18,205 nucleotides of DNA. Origin: a virus. The DNA is taken from IMG/VR virus record IMGVR_UViG_3300033405_000009. One strand, written 5' to 3'. The translations under genes were made by a program, and so were the position numbers. Shown in pieces: positions 861-10,316 of this stretch. Every line of letters starts with the position of its first letter. Positions within the stretch are counted from its first letter, which is position 1. The notes below the pieces were generated by a model, which was not told the DNA's origin, did not search any database, and worked only from the letters and a program-made list of their open reading frames with translations.

Positions 861-890
861 GAGTGAATTGTTCATCTGTTTTATGGTTAG

Positions 891-1240
891 TGGAGAAGCG
901 GGGAATCGAACCCCGGTCCGCGAAACGCCCGATTCGTCTTCTTTCACGTGCGTAGTCGTCATATCCCTGACGACTGAGTTCGCAGATTCGGCTGCGACCT
1001 AGATGACCTGTGGATCTCGATCCTTTCGCCGGTCAACCCGCGTCGGATCCAGCCCTGGTGGTTCATGCCCGGAGATCAGGTACTAGGACGATCTTCCTGC
1101 CGGACAGCTTCACGGTTTCTTAGGCCGCGAGGCGCGCTGCGTTGTCGTTCGCAATTGGACGGCCCATTTGGTTGTGGCGGGACGGGCGCCGCCTGCACGC
1201 AGACTAAATCTTCCTTTCCACGTCGAAACCGATCTTCCCC
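891..1240 (-). ncRNA. ssrA: tmRNA (SsrA), about 350 nt; tag reading frame GCG AAC GAC AAC GCA GCG CGC CTC GCG GCC TAA = ANDNAARLAA*
   Basis: Minus-strand 5' end GGGGAAGATCGGTTTCGACG matches the tmRNA 5' consensus (GGGG...TTCGACG). The 3' end GGACCGGGGTTCGATTCCCCGCTTCTCCA is a tRNA-like T-arm plus acceptor strand CTTCTCC that pairs with the 5' GGGGAAG. An internal short ORF ends in the canonical ...LAA tag followed by TAA. CCA is not fully encoded (sequence continues ...A CTA). Confidence 0.85.
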
Positions 1241-2816: not shown

Positions 2817-2891
2817 TGGTGGTTCCGAAGGGGTTCGAACCCTCGTAGGGCGATTTTGAAAATCGCTGCCTGACCACTAGGCTACGGAACC
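2817..2891 (-). tRNA. tRNA with anticodon UCA (UGA-decoding), canonical cloverleaf, discriminator A, CCA encoded
   Basis: Reverse complement GGTTCCG-TA-GCCT-AGTGGTC-AGGC-A-GCGAT-TTTCAAA-ATCGC-CCTAC-GAGGG-TTCGAAC-CCCTT-CGGAACC-A-CCA. Every stem pairs. U33 and A37 are present, and anticodon 34-36 = UCA. The T-arm is palindromic (GGTTCGAACC), but only the minus-strand orientation gives a cloverleaf. Confidence 0.8.
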
Positions 2892-2897
2892 GAAAAC

Positions 2898-3878
2898 TTA
2901 ATGAAGTTCCCATGGCGGTGGACCATCCATATCATACAAGAACCCGACTTCCCAAACCTCATTCACAGGTGGATACTTGCTTTCGTAACGAAATTCGTGC
3001 GTTGTTCCACATTTTGTTCCTTCTTTCGCCAAATATTTGATGATTGAAACAACGTTCGCTCCACCTTGACCTGACTGGACGAGTTTCCGATAAGTGGCGG
3101 TTTTGATTCGCCCAATCTTGTGGAATTTGCGCTGGGCTTCTTCGCCGCCCTTGAGGAGAACATTGTAATCAACTTTCTCGTAAACTTGTTCGGCGCCCTC
3201 GAAGATGACTGTCAATTTCATCCTTTTTCCGGGGTCCACTTCGGTGATCTCGGTCTTGATTCCGACCCCGAATCCGTATGGATTCTTGAAGGTCAGATCC
3301 ACCGAATAGCAATTAGGATTTTTCCGATTGTGCGCGTTTTCTCGATGGTTTCCATTGCACTCGACTGGATAAGCCACCGTCGCATCCATCCCTTTCGGGA
3401 TATACTTGATCATTCGTGTGTGCGGTTGGCGCGAAGTGATTTCCATCCCGCTCATTAACGCGGCTGCATGAAGAGTGGAGCTTACTTGACAGACCCCGCC
3501 GCCGATTCCGGGCGTCATTTCTCCCATAAAAATGACTGGCGCGTCGATGAATCCATTCTCTGCTACGCGAGGCCCGACTACATCATTAAAACTGAACTCT
3601 TGTTGTGGATCCAACACAGTTCGAAGCTTAGTAGCAGCGAGCTCGATGTTGGTAGCTCTCGCGTTTACGTCATATTCGGTTGAATACCGACCTAACTCAG
3701 GGCTTGGACGGTGATCCGGCGGGGGAAGCCTCTCTTGTTCACTCTTGAGTACGGAGATGCCTGGTGAAATCTCCACCATCTCCGGCGGAGGTTCCGCAGA
3801 CTTCTCAGGTGGAGGCGTCGGAGGTGCTGGCCTCGAACAGGCAACCACTAAGAACAAGAGGAAAGTAAAACGCTTCAT
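2898..3878 (-). CDS. VanW-domain lipoprotein
   Basis: 326 aa. Signal peptide MKRFTFLLFLVVAC with lipobox VVAC, followed by a Pro-rich linker. Carries the VanW signature GGGVCQVSSTLHAAAL. The ATG overlaps the pyrE TGA stop (ATGA). Confidence 0.6.
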   Translation of the reverse strand: MKRFTFLLFLVVACSRPAPPTPPPEKSAEPPPEMVEISPGISVLKSEQERLPPPDHRPSPELGRYSTEYDVNARATNIELAATKLRTVLDPQQEFSFNDVVGPRVAENGFIDAPVIFMGEMTPGIGGGVCQVSSTLHAAALMSGMEITSRQPHTRMIKYIPKGMDATVAYPVECNGNHRENAHNRKNPNCYSVDLTFKNPYGFGVGIKTEITEVDPGKRMKLTVIFEGAEQVYEKVDYNVLLKGGEEAQRKFHKIGRIKTATYRKLVQSGQGGANVVSIIKYLAKEGTKCGTTHEFRYESKYPPVNEVWEVGFLYDMDGPPPWELH

Positions 3879-4444
3879 TCCAAGAACTGCTCTTTCGTGT
3901 AGATGGCAATAGCTTCGATTCCGGCAGCTTTGAATGCCTCATCGGCGCCTTCATTACGATTTACAAGCCCCACAACCCCAAGCACCTCGAAGCCTTCATT
4001 TTTCAAGGTTTGGATCGCACGGAGTGAAGAACCGCCCGTGGTAAATACATCCTCAAGAAGGACTACGGGAGTACCAGCAGGAAGAGATCCCTTGCCTTCT
4101 ACAAGAGCGCCCGTCCCATGGTCCTTCTTGGCTTTCCGCACATAGAGGGCGGGCAAATCTTGGATTTCACTCACGGCACTCAAAAGAGATACCGCGCTGG
4201 CTAGAGGACAACCACCAAGTTCGACACCAGCTACGGCTTTAGCATCTGGGAAATTTGACGCGACCGCCTCCAGCATGACCTGTCCGGCCCACAAATGGCC
4301 TGTGGCGTCCAAAATAGCCTGTTTGCAGTCGATGAAGAAATCGCTTTCTTTGCCGGAAGCCAGAGTAAACTTCCCGAAACGGACCGATTTGGTCCGAAGT
4401 AGACGAGCGAGGTCCTTGTGCGGATCGGAGCCTAGGTGAATCAT
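3875..4444 (-). CDS. pyrE: orotate phosphoribosyltransferase
   Basis: 189 aa. FGKFTLASGKESDFFIDCK and the PRPP-binding motif VVLLEDVFTTGGS match OPRTase. TGA stop. Confidence 0.85.
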   Translation of the reverse strand: MIHLGSDPHKDLARLLRTKSVRFGKFTLASGKESDFFIDCKQAILDATGHLWAGQVMLEAVASNFPDAKAVAGVELGGCPLASAVSLLSAVSEIQDLPALYVRKAKKDHGTGALVEGKGSLPAGTPVVLLEDVFTTGGSSLRAIQTLKNEGFEVLGVVGLVNRNEGADEAFKAAGIEAIAIYTKEQFLE

Positions 4445-4854: not shown

Positions 4855-5193
4855 TTACGCCGACATGGACTCAGTTTCCGGCAACGCTAAACCAAGTCCT
4901 CGACACAACCGCCTAGATCGATCCCCTGGCTCGAGAGTAATCGCCGTCAACGCGTTGTTCATGTCAGGCTCTCGGAATTGAGAAATTTGAAGTCCTCGTT
5001 CCTCAGCCTTTTTCACGAGCATTCAAAGCTCGCGCTCGTCACGAACCGCGAGCATGGCGATGTAATTCGAGTTGCGGTACCAATCCATCCAGTCCGGATG
5101 CTCCGCTGCGTACGCCAGCGCTGCATGGATCGATTGCACTGCCTGATCCCCATCCGGAAGATCCGAACGAGTGATGACATACAACTTTTCCAT
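4855..5193 (-). CDS. PTH2-family peptidyl-tRNA hydrolase-like protein interrupted by an in-frame TGA at 5023-5025 (needs UGA readthrough); alternative start GTG at 5229
   Basis: Upstream part KLYVITRSDLPDGDQAVQSIHAALAYA...IAMLAVRDEREL resembles the PTH2 N-terminal half ([25 protein letters not shown]...). Directly after the TGA the same frame continues MLVKKAEERGLQISQFREPDMNNALTAITLEPGD and matches the PTH2 C-terminal half (...AEELGL...DAGRTQIAPGS.TVLAIGPGP). The ORF ends at TAA 4855-4857. Alignment was done from memory. Confidence 0.45.
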
Positions 5194-5197
5194 GAGT

Positions 5198-5614
5198 TTA
5201 GACCGTCGCTGCGACCATAGCCGCCTCACGTGGATAAGGAGCCTTCGGCCTCGGAGGAGGCGCCGAAATGGCCCCGGAGGGGTCCTGGAGCCAGCTCACG
5301 ATCTGCTCTTTCTTCAAGTCAGGCAAATGCTTCTGCAAGAGCTTGAAGAGGTAATCCGGGTAGGGCATGTTGTGTTCGAAATGCCACACATCCCCAACCT
5401 TTCGGATACTCACAGTGCCGACAGTGGACCAATAAGCGCCGTCCAATGCCTGCATGTGATGCGATCGTTCGATGCGCCTATACTTGAAACCCCTGATGTA
5501 ACCCCAAGCGAGATTACGATAGCGGTCTCCGTGTGAGCGATCTTCACGAATCGCGTTATGAAGCGCCTTTACCCGAGCGCGTTCGACGCGCTGTTCATCC
5601 GTCATCTGATACAT
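5198..5614 (-). CDS. hypothetical protein (138 aa)
   Basis: ORF with ATG start and TAA stop; basic and aromatic-rich; no family recognised. Confidence 0.4.
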   Translation of the reverse strand: MYQMTDEQRVERARVKALHNAIREDRSHGDRYRNLAWGYIRGFKYRRIERSHHMQALDGAYWSTVGTVSIRKVGDVWHFEHNMPYPDYLFKLLQKHLPDLKKEQIVSWLQDPSGAISAPPPRPKAPYPREAAMVAATV

Positions 5615-5759
5615 GGTAACTCTCCTGGTAAATGGTAAACGTCGTTGCGAAATTGGGAACGACGGACACCAGGAGGTCCACGGATGCAGTTAATTCAGAG
5701 GTGGTGCTTCATGATTCAACCATCATAACCGTTGTTGCTGCAGCTGTCAAGTTCGGGGT

Positions 5760-5832
5760 GCGCCGAGTCAGATTCGAACTGACACGTGCCCGCTTATGAG
5801 ACGGGGGCTCTGACCGATTGAGCTATCGGCGC
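5760..5832 (-). tRNA. tRNA-Met (anticodon CAU; elongator Met or Ile2-type cannot be distinguished)
   Basis: Reverse complement GCGCCGA-TA-GCTC-AATCGGTCA-GAGC-C-CCCGT-CTCATAA-GCGGG-CACGT-GTCAG-TTCGAAT-CTGAC-TCGGCGC. All arms are canonical. No C1:A72 mismatch or 3 GC anticodon-stem signature of initiators. CCA not encoded. Confidence 0.8.
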
Positions 5833-5841
5833 AGTATGTTG

Positions 5842-5913
5842 TCCGCCGCCCGGGAGTTGAACCCGACCACAAAGTTTATAGGACTTCGTAGCTCAACCGG
5901 AGCGTTGCGGCGG
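5842..5913 (-). tRNA. tRNA-like gene with apparent anticodon UAU (Ile, AUA-reading) but atypical C33 and a short D-loop; possibly aberrant or a pseudo-tRNA
   Basis: Reverse complement CCGCCGC-AA-C-GCTC-CGGTT-GAGC-TAC-GAAGT-CCTATAA-ACTTT-GTGG-TCGGG-TTCAACT-CCCGG-GCGGCGG. The 7-bp acceptor and T-arm are good. The anticodon loop CCUAUAA lacks the conserved U33. Confidence 0.45.
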
Positions 5914-5985: not shown

Positions 5986-6933
5986 TCAAGTGAGTTCTCG
6001 TACTCGTCGGACAATTTTGCGTACCCGCCATGGACGTAGCATCCCAACGACTCCGAGTTTTACAGCGGATACTCCGAGCCTCGTTAGAATCTCAGCGGCT
6101 TCCACCGACATTACCCCACCACCTACGATTAGGGGTTTCTTGAGCTTAGCCATTTTAGCTCTTTGAGCGATCTCAAGTACTAATGGAAAGATTGGATTCC
6201 CTGACATTCCACCACCCCCAATATGGGATAACGGAGAAGCAGACTGTCCCCAAATCTGATTCCAATTGATCTTATGGGATAGATTTCCCCATTTCAGTGT
6301 GTTGGAAACTGAAACTGCATCGCAAGCTGGGTGATTCATGACTTCCCGGATGATCTCCACTGAAATATCAGGTCCGAAGTTGGGGACGAGAGGGATTCCC
6401 AGAACCTTGGCAATGTCCAAAGCTCCACCAGCTTCTTCCGCAAGTTCGGACGTTGAAAGTCCAACATTCGGGCAAGAGAAATTCATTTCTAAAGCGAATG
6501 GACTTTTGAACTCCGGAATGTGAGGTTTGAGCATCTCGACGAAACTGTGAAGTTCCATCATTCTGTGGACGAGAGATGAATCCACGCTCATGAATGAGAT
6601 GAGGAACGGTCTCTCTCGAGCTTGCCATTTACCGCTCATGAGCAACGCATGAGCCCCAGGACCGCTTAATCCCACAGCATTTAGAACGGCCCCCTGAAGG
6701 AACTTAACCTTTATGCAAGAAGGGAGAAGGTCTTTCGGAGAGACTCCATCTGCCTCAAGAGGCATGTTCCCCGCACGGGGGTGGAGGGTCGTGGTTTTAG
6801 CAACGAAGGTGGCCCCTTCATAGTCAAGGCCGAATGGCTTCATTAGCCTATGATACCAATATCCATCTCCGTAAAACCCGAGGGAACCGGATGAGCACCA
6901 AACTGATCCGTATTCCGTCCCTCGTAACTTCAC
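5986..6933 (-). CDS. pyrD: dihydroorotate dehydrogenase, class 1 (active-site Cys)
   Basis: 315 aa. Motifs EMNFSCPNV, GGGGMSGNPIFPLVLEIAQRA and LIVGGGVMSVEAAEILTRLGVSAV. TGA stop. The GTG start as called is uncertain. Confidence 0.75.
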   Translation of the reverse strand: MKLRGTEYGSVWCSSGSLGFYGDGYWYHRLMKPFGLDYEGATFVAKTTTLHPRAGNMPLEADGVSPKDLLPSCIKVKFLQGAVLNAVGLSGPGAHALLMSGKWQARERPFLISFMSVDSSLVHRMMELHSFVEMLKPHIPEFKSPFALEMNFSCPNVGLSTSELAEEAGGALDIAKVLGIPLVPNFGPDISVEIIREVMNHPACDAVSVSNTLKWGNLSHKINWNQIWGQSASPLSHIGGGGMSGNPIFPLVLEIAQRAKMAKLKKPLIVGGGVMSVEAAEILTRLGVSAVKLGVVGMLRPWRVRKIVRRVRELT

Positions 6934-8271: not shown

Positions 8272-8938
8272 TTACCAGTCCCCTCGCGAGTATTCCTTAT
8301 ATTTCCATTGTCGACCAGTTAGATGGTCATTGACTTGACCATCCTGAACTCGAACAGTTCTTCTCTTATCGCCGCGCATCCCGGACCCCACTTGAGCTCG
8401 TCGATCAGCGGCTCGAGCAGAAGTCACTCTTTCATGCTCCGAAGCCCAGAGACGGGCACGAAGAAGTGAAAGAGCGGTTTCCTTGTTCTGTTTGAGGCTG
8501 CGCTCTGTTTCACATCGAACTTGAAGCCCGGACGGTTCATGCTTTAGAATTATAGCCGTTTCGACTTTATTCCTAGCTTGTCCGCCGGCTCCGGATCCGC
8601 GAGTTGGGATCCATTCGAGATCGTCTTCTCGAATATGAACCTGCGCTTCAGTCGGGATGGGTAAAACTGCGACTGTAATAGTCGAAGTCTGAACCCGGCC
8701 CCTTTTCTCTGTTGGAGGAATCCGTTGCCAGCGATGCCCGCCGGACTCATTCGCAAAGGTCTCGTCTGCTGCCTTCCCGGACACTTGGAAGGTAACGATT
8801 CCCGGTCGTCTGTCCGCTAGTTCGACGTCAAAGACCCCTCCGGACTGCCAAACGGGCGTAAATTCCGAATTGCTCTTCTACGAGGAGTTTGGCGTCTGCG
8901 CCGCCTTCTGCTGCCCTGATCTCGACTACAATACTCAT
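8272..8938 (-). CDS. class-I peptide chain release factor, RF1-like and N-terminally truncated, requiring a +1 programmed ribosomal frameshift at 8828-8833 (CUU UGA C)
   Basis: Frame 0 from ATG (8936-8938, SD AGAGG upstream) gives MSIVVEIRAAEGGADAKLLVEEQFGIYARLAVRRGL then TGA. The +1 frame continues DVELADRRPGIVTFQVSGKAADETFANESGGHRWQRIPPTEKRGRVQTSTITVAVLP...RGSGAGGQ...RTVRVQDGQVNDHLTGRQW. This aligns contiguously with RF1 domains 2-4 (EIRAGTGG...RYAEARRW/RVEIM...GGHRVQRVPATE...SGAGGQ). Shift-site context ccGGAGGggtCTTTGAC matches GGAGG, 3 nt, CUU-UGA-C. Domain 1 (about 105 aa) is absent. The recognition loop PPT fits the RF1 PxT motif, not the RF2 SPF motif. Confidence 0.75.
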
Positions 8939-9300: not shown

Positions 9301-10316
9301 TTCTTGACGTCGAGTCCGAACATGAGAGGGCTGCCCTGCGGGAGGATATTGGCTGGCATTCCGCCGTTCCACTTCTTGGCCGCTTCGAGCATAGCCTCGG
9401 CTTGCATGCGCTGAATATCAAGGTGATTCTTCTCGATCAGAGCTTCCTTGGCCTTGGCGAATTCTTCGGCCGCCATACGTTCGGCCCTCGCTGCAGCGAT
9501 CTTCTGCTCATTCTTCTGCTCATTCGCGACTTTCTCTTTACGGGCGATTTCGATGTTCATTTCGGCGTTGGCCGTTTCGTTGATTGCTGCCTGAATCTTG
9601 TCATCGAAGGCCAGACCACCCGCACTTCCGACGTTCTGTACGGTGATTCCGTACGTCTTGAAGTGCTCCTTCGTAAGTTTCTCAACCTCGGCGAACACTC
9701 GACTCTTCTGGACTTTGCACTCCTCCAAGGTCAGGACACCGAATGCCTTCGAAAGCTCGCCCTGAATGAAACCGCGGACGTTCTGATCAACGACTTCTTT
9801 GAGTTGCTTCGTGGTGTGGTAATAGAGATAGACTGGGGCGTCCTCCTCCATTACGAAGGCAGTCATGTTCACACCCACGTGAAAGTTGATACTTTCTTTC
9901 GACTCCACCTCGATGGCTCGCACGTCTTCAACGGGACCGGGAGCCGCTGCGGGTGCTCCAGGAGCTGCGGGTGCTGGAGCCTTGGCTGGCGGCGACGCGT
10001 CGTTCTTGATCCACTCGCGCGTAACGAGACTCCTGTCGACCTTAACGACTCGGACGGTGGGAATCCACTCGTAGTCCCACCACATTCGCCCCGTATCTCG
10101 CTCGCGTACGGAGATCTCGATACGCTTTGCGACGACCTTCTTGGACTCGAGATACTTGATGCTCTCGAACTTCTCCTGTTCCTTGCTGTTTCCTTCGAGA
10201 GGAATGACGAAGGCTGTCTCGTTCGGCCCAACGTTTTCGAGTGGCAGAACTTTCGCCGGGCCACACCCGATCAGGGTGAGCGCGAACATGATGAACCCAA
10301 CATTCGACAGCTTCAT
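9297..10316 (-). CDS. SPFH/band-7 (stomatin/flotillin-like) domain lipoprotein
   Basis: Probable start MKLSNVGFIMFALTLIGC (lipobox LIGC) at 10316, sharing TAATG with the upstream gene. C-terminal SPFH-like region GITVQNVGSAGGLAFDDKIQAAINETANAEMNIEIARKEKVANEQKNEQKIAAARAERMAAEEFAKAKEA. Ala/Pro linker. The antisense ORF 9276-10469 is a shadow. Confidence 0.6.
   Translation of the reverse strand: MKLSNVGFIMFALTLIGCGPAKVLPLENVGPNETAFVIPLEGNSKEQEKFESIKYLESKKVVAKRIEISVRERDTGRMWWDYEWIPTVRVVKVDRSLVTREWIKNDASPPAKAPAPAAPGAPAAAPGPVEDVRAIEVESKESINFHVGVNMTAFVMEEDAPVYLYYHTTKQLKEVVDQNVRGFIQGELSKAFGVLTLEECKVQKSRVFAEVEKLTKEHFKTYGITVQNVGSAGGLAFDDKIQAAINETANAEMNIEIARKEKVANEQKNEQKIAAARAERMAAEEFAKAKEALIEKNHLDIQRMQAEAMLEAAKKWNGGMPANILPQGSPLMFGLDVKK

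Follow-up and report, generated by a model that had tools for sequence, protein, structure and literature searches.

The 18,205-nucleotide (nt) stretch of DNA analysed here, hereafter the window, belongs to the IMG/VR virus record IMGVR_UViG_3300033405_000009 and carries on its minus strand a gene related to the PTH2 family of peptidyl-tRNA hydrolases, whose reading frame is interrupted by a TGA, together with two genes for tRNAs with the anticodon UCA. All conclusions drawn below rest on comparative sequence evidence only. The frame between positions 4855 and 5229 translates as 68 codons, a TGA, 55 further codons and a TAA. The original prediction took the 68-amino-acid (aa) open reading frame (ORF) at 5023-5229 and its continuation past the TGA to be the halves of a single PTH2-like gene; the TGA and the continuation stand as described, but the start does not. 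The likely start is the ATG at 5193-5191 (MEKLYVITR...), located 5 nt past the TAA of the upstream ORF, rather than the GTG at 5229, because a 56-aa ORF with this start is called in the source assemblies and the homolog alignments all begin at this ATG. The gene and the two tRNAs are laid out as follows.

4855..5193, minus strand: PTH2-like gene of 112 sense positions, one of which is an in-frame TGA; matched by Pfam PTH2, phrog_1866 and the family hidden Markov model (HMM)
5193-5026 (56 aa), minus strand: N part of the gene; 5022-4858 (55 aa): C part; 4857-4855: TAA
5023..5025, minus strand: in-frame TGA, codon 57, in the context GAG CTT TGA ATG; fills one alignment column
2817..2891, minus strand: tRNA(UCA) 1, found by ARAGORN; 61 bits on the Rfam tRNA model, encoded CCA end, discriminator A73, 5-nt variable loop
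2395..2467, minus strand: tRNA(UCA) 2, missed by ARAGORN; 45.9 bits on the Rfam tRNA model, anticodon loop CUUCAAA, discriminator G73

Integrity of the interrupted gene

Both halves of the interrupted frame are homologous to one and the same protein, as had been proposed. Whatever residue the TGA is taken to encode, the fusion of the two halves reaches 30 bits with Pfam PTH2 (PF01981; aa 3-93), above the cut-off of 23, while the N half alone reaches 15.3 bits and the C half alone has no match in the Pfam scan. The product also matches phrog_1866 with an E value of 2.2e-13. Against a family profile built from 55 phage relatives, none of them from the window's phage, each half matches on its own (N, 71.9 bits; C, 57.7 bits), and the fusion scores 141.5 bits in a colinear alignment free of gaps. 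The match of the conceptual product to PTH2 is far beyond chance. The C half retains all the invariant residues of the family (FREPD, TAI, EP, LC and LxLAL) and contains neither a frameshift nor a second stop.

Eight contigs of ENA, JGI and Logan assemblies, up to 98 kb long, carry the called 56-aa ORF that stops at this TGA. The TGA is thus not an assembly error, the identical sequence being found in 8 assemblies. Two independent copies of the locus display 100% identity across 6.2 kb, and a third assembly is 99.98% identical to the source contig across a 10.5-kb overlap that excludes the PTH2-like gene. A separate 55-aa ORF is called for the C part in one assembly. The window as a whole has no megablast match among GenBank phages, a degenerate DNA pattern spanning the TGA gave zero matches in IMG/VR, and a search of the JGI metagenome collection returned neither the window's phage nor any diverged ortholog.

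The two tRNA(UCA) genes announced by the original prediction are both present, as judged by ARAGORN, Rfam and the sequence itself, and lie on the same strand as the PTH2-like gene, at 2.13 kb (tRNA 1) and 2.56 kb (tRNA 2) from the TGA, that is 1.96 and 2.39 kb downstream of the gene end. By sequence comparison tRNA(UCA) 1 is closest to the amber suppressors of the homolog loci described below. tRNA(UCA) 2 displays a Trp-like loop, but an overall similarity to tRNA-Trp is absent. Elsewhere in the window, ARAGORN reports a tRNA-Ile(UAU) at 5841-5913 on the minus strand, of uncertain authenticity and below the Rfam gathering score, which adjoins a well-supported tRNA-Met at 5756-5833.

Fold of the protein family and the column of the TGA

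The family profile matches solved Pth2 chains of the PDB over their full length (2zv3, E 2.6e-11). Structure prediction was made on the homolog P0001, which is 54% identical and served as a stand-in for the fused sequence of the window; the model has a pLDDT (predicted local distance difference test) of 97.6, and its top 15 PDB matches are all Pth2 or Pth2-like, with template modelling (TM) scores of 0.66-0.78, the significant ones scoring 0.76-0.78. The modelling shows a predicted PTH2 α/β fold for the protein family of the window, in line with the original prediction. In the P0001 model the residue at the TGA position is Y64, in mid-helix (helix 3, residues 60-72), and the product ending at the TGA, 56 aa long, would be without two strands and without the invariant E-P-D motif.

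The motifs R-x-D-L and A-Q-x-x-H-A are common to the subfamily and Pth2. When aligned to 2zv3, 24bt and 1rzw, the subfamily displays a 2-residue gap at the 'GK' loop of the catalytic Lys, and its invariant E-P-D stands where Pth2 has D-x-G-x-T (D-A-G), followed by a 4-residue deletion, with the carboxylate kept. In the canonical enzyme, as represented by Pth2 of S. solfataricus, the catalytic residues are Lys18 of the G-K loop and Asp86 of the D-x-G-x-T motif. Because the subfamily departs from canonical Pth2 at these catalytic positions, the protein is here named PTH2-like and we only infer its hydrolase activity; it is presumed to act as a hydrolase of a tRNA-linked ester.

The residue immediately before the TGA column is an invariant Leu (136 of 137 homologs). 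The TGA-aligned column itself is variable among the 137 homologs (K21, I18, L15, E14, Q11, N10, Y7, F6 and others), and both Trp and Cys fall outside its 12 commonest residues, which account for nearly all the sequences. The position had been described as hydrophobic in homologs and compatible with Trp, a description that this distribution does not support; with a variable column, the alignment gives no hint of the residue inserted. Variability extends to the next column, where Met is not among the 12 commonest residues of the same homologs, and across the TGA point 137 of 137 homologs are single chains. Four relatives carry additional sequence: in P0038 and P0044 (327-331 aa) and in P0008 and P0036, which have N-terminal extensions, a region of about 200 aa with HD-like 'HDxGK', 'HYPNHA' and C-terminal 'MFGG..STSFKIKW' motifs is fused or adjacent, and could represent another conserved partner of the PTH2-like gene.

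Gate codons across the family and their cognate suppressor tRNAs

About 100 homolog loci (designated by L and a number) were compared, drawn from IMG/VR, JGI metagenomes and GTDB genomes, with relatives at 40-59% identity. The family comprises roughly 1,459 representatives in all. The fraction of guanine plus cytosine (GC) in these loci ranges from 0.24 to 0.66, and many of the contigs measure 130-447 kb. A stop within the leader, here termed the gate codon, is present in 84 non-redundant genes, a count that leaves aside the gene of L024, which has no stop. The gate codon is TAG in 81 genes, TGA in one (L053) and TAA in two (L096 and, doubtfully, L091). An in-frame ATG is positioned 1-7 codons before the gate stop in 83 of the 84, the commonest spacing being 2 codons. 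The base 3' of the gate stop is a purine in 83/84 homologs, and the TGA of the window is likewise followed by a purine; suppression genetics has established that a 3' purine after the stop favours suppression.

The identity of the gate codon follows that of a suppressor tRNA encoded nearby, always on the same strand, with TAG paired to CUA, TGA to UCA (L053) and TAA to UUA (L096). A cognate suppressor lies within about 2.5 kb, on the same strand, in each of the 26 non-redundant loci whose flanks measure 2.5 kb or more on either side. ARAGORN finds the cognate tRNA in 24 of these well-flanked loci, at -72 to +2093 nt from the gene, and in the other two an amber tRNA with unusual arms was recovered via Rfam or by eye. 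L024 holds the sole well-flanked gene without an in-frame stop, and a suppressor tRNA is absent there in 20 kb. No homolog locus contains a non-cognate suppressor tRNA. The genes of L019, L079 and L104 contain extra internal TAGs that would also need suppression. In the closest database homolog, P0001 (L105 195-533), the apparent 'Q3' is a TAG that the pipeline translated with code 15, and the rendering of TAG as Gln means that protein databases hide the gate codon in this family. The gate codon is absent from XacN1 ORF295, a canonical Pth2. Comparison of the loci shows that the PTH2-like gene family, as a rule, carries an in-frame stop matched to the anticodon of a neighbouring suppressor tRNA.

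A reading of the family leaders as mini-ORFs followed by reinitiation was considered and rejected, since 32 of the 84 post-stop codons (GTT, GTA, AAC and others) are not possible starts, some genes have internal TAGs and the stop tracks the anticodon. In a crude test for TAG recoding based on the long ORFs around the homologs, internal TAGs are rare or absent in low-GC loci (in several of them, 0 of 10-25 ORFs), the test being too noisy above a GC of 0.4; this suggests that the neighbourhoods of the homologs are not heavily TAG-recoded.

The gene of the window combines, as in the family, a stop with a linked tRNA of cognate anticodon, but its leader is absent (M-E-K-L-Y...) and its stop stands at codon 57. 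Judged against its relatives, the gate codon is here moved from the short leader into the body of the gene.

Several homolog loci hold suppressor-type tRNAs of odd architecture, namely L046 (10374-10446 and 11212-11282), L064 (about 9895-9968) and L061 (386-460 and 463-540). They display unusual T loops, D arms or enlarged anticodon loops and are missed or mislabelled by ARAGORN, so that counts of phage suppressor tRNAs obtained with standard tools are too low. The closest N-terminal match, at 59% identity, is found at L108 4001-4313 in the metagenome-assembled genome 'Pseudomonadota bacterium KLAP178' (CAUJHX010000182.1, GC 0.66). Its PTH2-like ORF is colinear with the family only after a +1 shift at CAT TAG C (about 4118-4124), which is either a real recoding site or an assembly error. 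A suppressor tRNA is absent in the 8 kb of this locus, and two tRNA-Ile(aat) genes are located just upstream, as in L024.

The module in mycobacteriophages

The PTH2-like family bears the annotation 'peptidyl tRNA hydrolase' in 207 records of cluster C mycobacteriophages. In four cultured phages the hydrolase ORF is preceded by an in-frame ATG TAG (Bxz1 and Adlitam) or GTG TAG (Myrna and ScoobyDoobyDoo), in each case as part of the sequence NTG TAG GTG.

L106 3974-3982: NTG TAG GTG before the hydrolase ORF, ScoobyDoobyDoo
L107 3974-3982: NTG TAG GTG before the hydrolase ORF, Adlitam
L111 871-879: NTG TAG GTG before the hydrolase ORF, Bxz1
L112 874-882: NTG TAG GTG before the hydrolase ORF, Myrna

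A tRNA(CUA) gene lies 130-310 nt downstream in all four phages, annotated as 'tRNA-OTHER', 'tRNA-Pyl' or 'tRNA-Ser'. TAG terminates 4 of the 8 annotated coding sequences in the ScoobyDoobyDoo locus, and with TAG such a common terminator these mycobacteriophages are not TAG-recoded. An element TTGACA-N17-TAC(T/A)GT, read by eye, is located upstream of NTG TAG GTG in the four mycobacteriophages, and transcripts could begin near the NTG, which would give a leaderless AUG-UAG mRNA. A sigma-70 scan of Bxz1 yielded no promoter at the scan threshold.

UGA in the remainder of the phage

The window is tiled almost completely by standard-code ORFs on one strand. TGA terminates 7 of the 22 other ORFs, several of them in ATGA or GTGA overlaps, and reading TGA through would extend one ORF across two tRNA genes. 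A scan for TGAs joining two coding-like segments covered 34.6 kb of the source contig and a 9.8-kb extension (about 44 kb). The only coding-to-coding in-frame TGA on the gene strand of the 34.6 kb is that of the PTH2-like gene, and the extension, which comprises small unannotated genes only and no late genes, adds nothing convincing. The putative endolysin (amidase, 1467-2030) and the tail-fibre-like genes have no in-frame TGA. General reassignment of UGA is absent in the approximately 44 kb seen of a genome of at least 98 kb. The earlier proposal that UGA is sense in some genes of this DNA, through the UCA tRNAs, therefore fits the PTH2-like gene but does not extend to a general reassignment, there being one such TGA in 44 kb.

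Release factor, tmRNA and other features of the window

A second gene of the window contains a TGA that must be passed, and in this gene the passage is a change of frame. It encodes a protein similar to release factor 1 (RF1) that is without domain 1.

8272..8938, minus strand: RF1-like release-factor gene without domain 1; +1 shift at GGAGGGG-T-CTT TGA C, with CTT at 8833-8831 and TGA at 8830-8828
L064 7751-8402, L100 8194-8842, L057 7845-8492 and L069 3401-4051: truncated RF1-like homologs in four loci with the PTH2-like gene

The fused product of 221 aa has the PPT motif and fits RF1 models (191-195 bits) better than release factor 2 (RF2; 128 bits), the RF1 matches covering positions 105-317 of 347 in PRK00591 and 114-325 of 361 in TIGR00019. 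The shift site is the canonical prfB cassette, a Shine-Dalgarno element followed by CUU UGA C, although an RF1-type factor should not itself read UGA. Single-sequence patterns retrieved no relatives of this gene from IMG/VR. Among the truncated homologs, those of the amber-suppressor phages L064 and L100 need a +1 shift at TGC/TGT CTT TAG C, and those of L057 and L069 are contiguous. An in-frame TGA occupies the conserved RF1 Trp position in L057, L064 and L069, and L057 contains a second in-frame TGA. With CTT TGA C in the window and CTT TAG C in the amber phages, the stop of the shift site also tracks the type of suppressor. The arrangement shows UGA in the window as a regulated decision point, by all appearances, rather than a plain sense codon.

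Two further features accompany the translation genes.

888..1240, minus strand: transfer-messenger RNA (tmRNA) with the tag ANDNAARLAA, 105 bits in Rfam
5722..5750, minus strand: promoter-like TTGACA-17-TATGAT, 11 of 12 consensus matches; the region has no more such sites than expected from shuffling

The tmRNA belongs with the other translation-rescue genes of the window. tmRNAs are also found near the PTH2-like gene in at least eight homolog loci, L027, L031, L032, L038, L046, L057, L064 and L088, and those of L027, L031, L032 and L038, a few kb from the gene, have related ANDNAF... tags. The promoter-like site is positioned upstream of ORF138, the PTH2-like gene, ORF130, the phosphoribosyltransferase gene, the VanW gene and the tRNA(UCA) genes, which share a single strand. 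The string of genes that includes the PTH2-like gene and the tRNAs also encodes (2898-4444 and 5986-6933, minus strand) a VanW-like protein and a phosphoribosyltransferase, with a dihydroorotate-dehydrogenase-like protein just upstream; a translation island would not usually carry such cargo. The VanW-like gene is given a later start by some callers (293 aa instead of 326 aa).

A proposed stop-gated PTH2-like gene and the alternatives to it

The locus is probably one intact gene of PTH2 fold gated by UGA, and would represent the opal version of the conserved module of stop and suppressor. In the absence of a charged UGA-reading tRNA, host RF2 would terminate translation at codon 57 and leave a 56-aa fragment, which is expected to be inactive because half of the β-sheet and the invariant E-P-D are missing. 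Once the tRNA(UCA) genes, which are probably in the same transcription unit as the PTH2-like gene, are expressed and their products charged, UGA would be decoded and the full enzyme of 112 aa made. We infer that readthrough of this UGA actually occurs. The PTH2-like gene would thereby sense the activity of the suppressor tRNA, and its product would be made in proportion to that activity. Suppression would let ribosomes pass stops and stall, with more abortive products, and the enzyme may act on the peptidyl- or aminoacyl-tRNA arising from suppression, through drop-off or stalled readthrough ribosomes, a role that would suit the co-encoded tmRNA and release factor. The circuit could be feed-forward, the remedy for the side effects of suppression being made only when suppression is on; it could alternatively be a negative-feedback governor, if the suppressor's own ester is a substrate.

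Several observations weigh against gating of this gene by readthrough. A stop at codon 57 is atypical next to the leaders of 1-7 codons, and the TGA could have arisen recently, with the tRNAs doing no more than tolerating it. The available copies of the window's phage are all essentially identical, hence conservation of the codon-57 TGA is uninformative. Efficient suppression of UGA would lengthen 7 other ORFs by 8-70 codons, one of them into tRNA genes. The subfamily is without the catalytic Lys of canonical Pth2, which leaves its enzymatic activity uncertain. In the mycobacteriophages, the annotated GTG start comes right after the TAG with good Shine-Dalgarno spacing, and readthrough is not required there. 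Finally, the ATG directly after the window's TGA means that reinitiation could yield a separate C-terminal peptide.

The atypical position of the stop is also what a pseudogene would display, created by a recent nonsense mutation with the tRNAs unrelated to it, and diverged orthologs showing that the TGA is maintained are not available. Such decay is nevertheless quite unlikely, as the C half keeps every invariant residue and its own 57.7-bit match without frameshift or second stop, the same sequence recurs in 8 assemblies, two cognate suppressor tRNAs are encoded on the same strand and the family rule makes an in-frame cognate stop the expected state. The intact C half and the family rule support the original view of a functional gene that is read across rather than one in decay. 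The juxtaposed TGA and ATG, and the 55-aa ORF called on its own in one assembly, would similarly fit a split gene, in which termination and reinitiation produce two peptides that assemble into the enzyme. We give this arrangement little credence: the break would fall mid-helix in a compact single-domain fold that is a single chain at this point in every one of the 137 homologs, the Met after the TGA is not conserved and occupies a variable column, a Shine-Dalgarno-like sequence is absent before the ATG, and the covariation with suppressor tRNAs would be left unexplained.

Three other ways of decoding the TGA have to be considered. The two tRNA(UCA) genes and the RF1-type release factor constitute the gene set reported for TGA-recoded phages (bioRxiv 10.1101/2021.08.26.457843). 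Recoding in such phages concentrates in late genes, and of a genome of at least 98 kb some 44 kb was scanned; the PTH2-like gene could on these grounds be one ordinary case of a genome-wide reassignment (code 4 or 25). This is improbable given the single coding-to-coding in-frame TGA in 44 kb, the 7 of 22 other ORFs that end in TGA, with their ATGA and GTGA overlaps and the one extension through tRNA genes, the uninterrupted putative endolysin and tail-fibre-like genes, the GC of 0.51 and a release-factor gene that is productive only by +1 bypass of UGA and not by in-frame reading. The same CTT TGA hexamer that serves as shift site in the release-factor gene occurs at the break of the PTH2-like gene, but a programmed +1 frameshift as in prfB is excluded, since the +1 frame closes three codons past CTT (E-C-S-stop), the homology stays in the zero frame, no Shine-Dalgarno-like element is present upstream and the CTT is accounted for by the invariant Leu. 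A reading of the UGA as selenocysteine is also excluded. ARAGORN calls the UCA tRNA 'SeC', from the anticodon alone, whereas both tRNAs have a length of 72-75 nt, variable loops of 5 nt and acceptor/T stems of 7/5, and the model they match is that of tRNAs in general rather than tRNA-Sec; all Rfam families of the selenocysteine insertion sequence (SECIS) score below threshold, Cys is outside the 12 commonest residues of the column, and Pfam scans of 20 ORFs, with three small ones left out, found no selA, selB or selD. The check for selenocysteine attached to the original prediction is thus negative, the tRNAs being ordinary ones.

If the PTH2-like gene is gated by UGA as proposed, the window shows that the module can switch to opal and shift its gate into the gene body, with the release-factor gene apparently using the same stop in a prfB-like manner. 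More tentatively, and with doubt outweighing confidence, the PTH2-like gene and its suppressor tRNA may form an autonomous, ancient and widespread phage module, in which the hydrolase gene would be the primary dedicated target of 'orphan' suppressors, including those of Bxz1 and Myrna, acting as sensor or governor of suppression and maybe as the seed of full reassignment.

Significance and comparison with known systems

Phage suppressor tRNAs, phage release factors and the gating of late genes by stop codons are already known (bioRxiv 10.1101/2021.08.26.457843), and PTH2 in jumbo phages was noted by Iyer et al. (PMC7824862). The authors of the XacN1 study explicitly sought targets of its CUA suppressors and found none (PMC5852040). 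No paper was found in which a PTH2-like gene is connected with suppressor tRNAs or its in-frame stop is mentioned, and the words 'hydrolase' and 'PTH' are absent from the Borges preprint (bioRxiv 10.1101/2021.08.26.457843). A conserved translational switch made of a PTH2-like gene and a suppressor tRNA is apparently undescribed.

The targets of suppressor tRNAs in standard-code phages are not known, and the PTH2-like gene offers a concrete and conserved one, with a testable circuit in which a translation-quality-control enzyme appears dependent for its synthesis on the adjacent suppressor tRNA. The evidence is the three-way covariation of TAG with CUA, TGA with UCA and TAA with UUA, in phages with a GC of 0.24-0.66 and genomes of up to more than 400 kb. 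For annotation, standard-code gene callers truncate or split the PTH2-like gene nearly everywhere. The module also bears on how phages tolerate, tune and evolve the reassignment of stop codons.

The window shares with stop-recoded phages (Ivanova 2014; Borges 10.1101/2021.08.26.457843; Peters PMC9523058) a suppressor tRNA, an RF1-type factor together with UGA reading, and an in-frame stop, proposed to delay translation until the suppressor is active. In contrast, the window has one such gene in at least 44 kb and TGA is still a common terminator; the gene with the stop would itself serve translation quality control and is genetically linked to the tRNA, and the module also occurs in standard-code phages.

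The likeness to Pth2 (PF01981; 2zv3, 1q7s, 1xty, 1wn2) comprises the fold, the full-length profile match and the R-x-D-L and A-Q-x-x-H-A motifs, while the subfamily differs by the loss of the G-K loop Lys and by E-P-D in place of D-x-G-x-T.

The bar minigenes of phage lambda are two-codon ORFs that cause peptidyl-tRNA drop-off and are functionally tied to Pth. The family leaders are similarly ORFs of 2-5 codons ending in a stop and connected to a hydrolase. In contrast to the bar minigenes, the mini-ORF of the family shares the frame of the hydrolase ORF and is fused to it, its stop matches the suppressor, and the gene of the window is without a mini-ORF.

The hydrolases of cluster C mycobacteriophages (Bxz1 gp154, Myrna gp84) are 34-41% identical and have the in-frame NTG-TAG and the downstream amber suppressor, in genomes that also contain a tmRNA and many tRNAs; their leader is a single codon closed by TAG, whereas the window has its TGA at codon 57.

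The +1 frameshift of prfB (RF2) at CUU UGA C resembles the proposed switch in that the expression of a translation factor is set by the decoding of its own stop. The PTH2-like gene differs in that it would become productive by in-frame suppressor readthrough, and would report the activity of a suppressor tRNA rather than that of a release factor.

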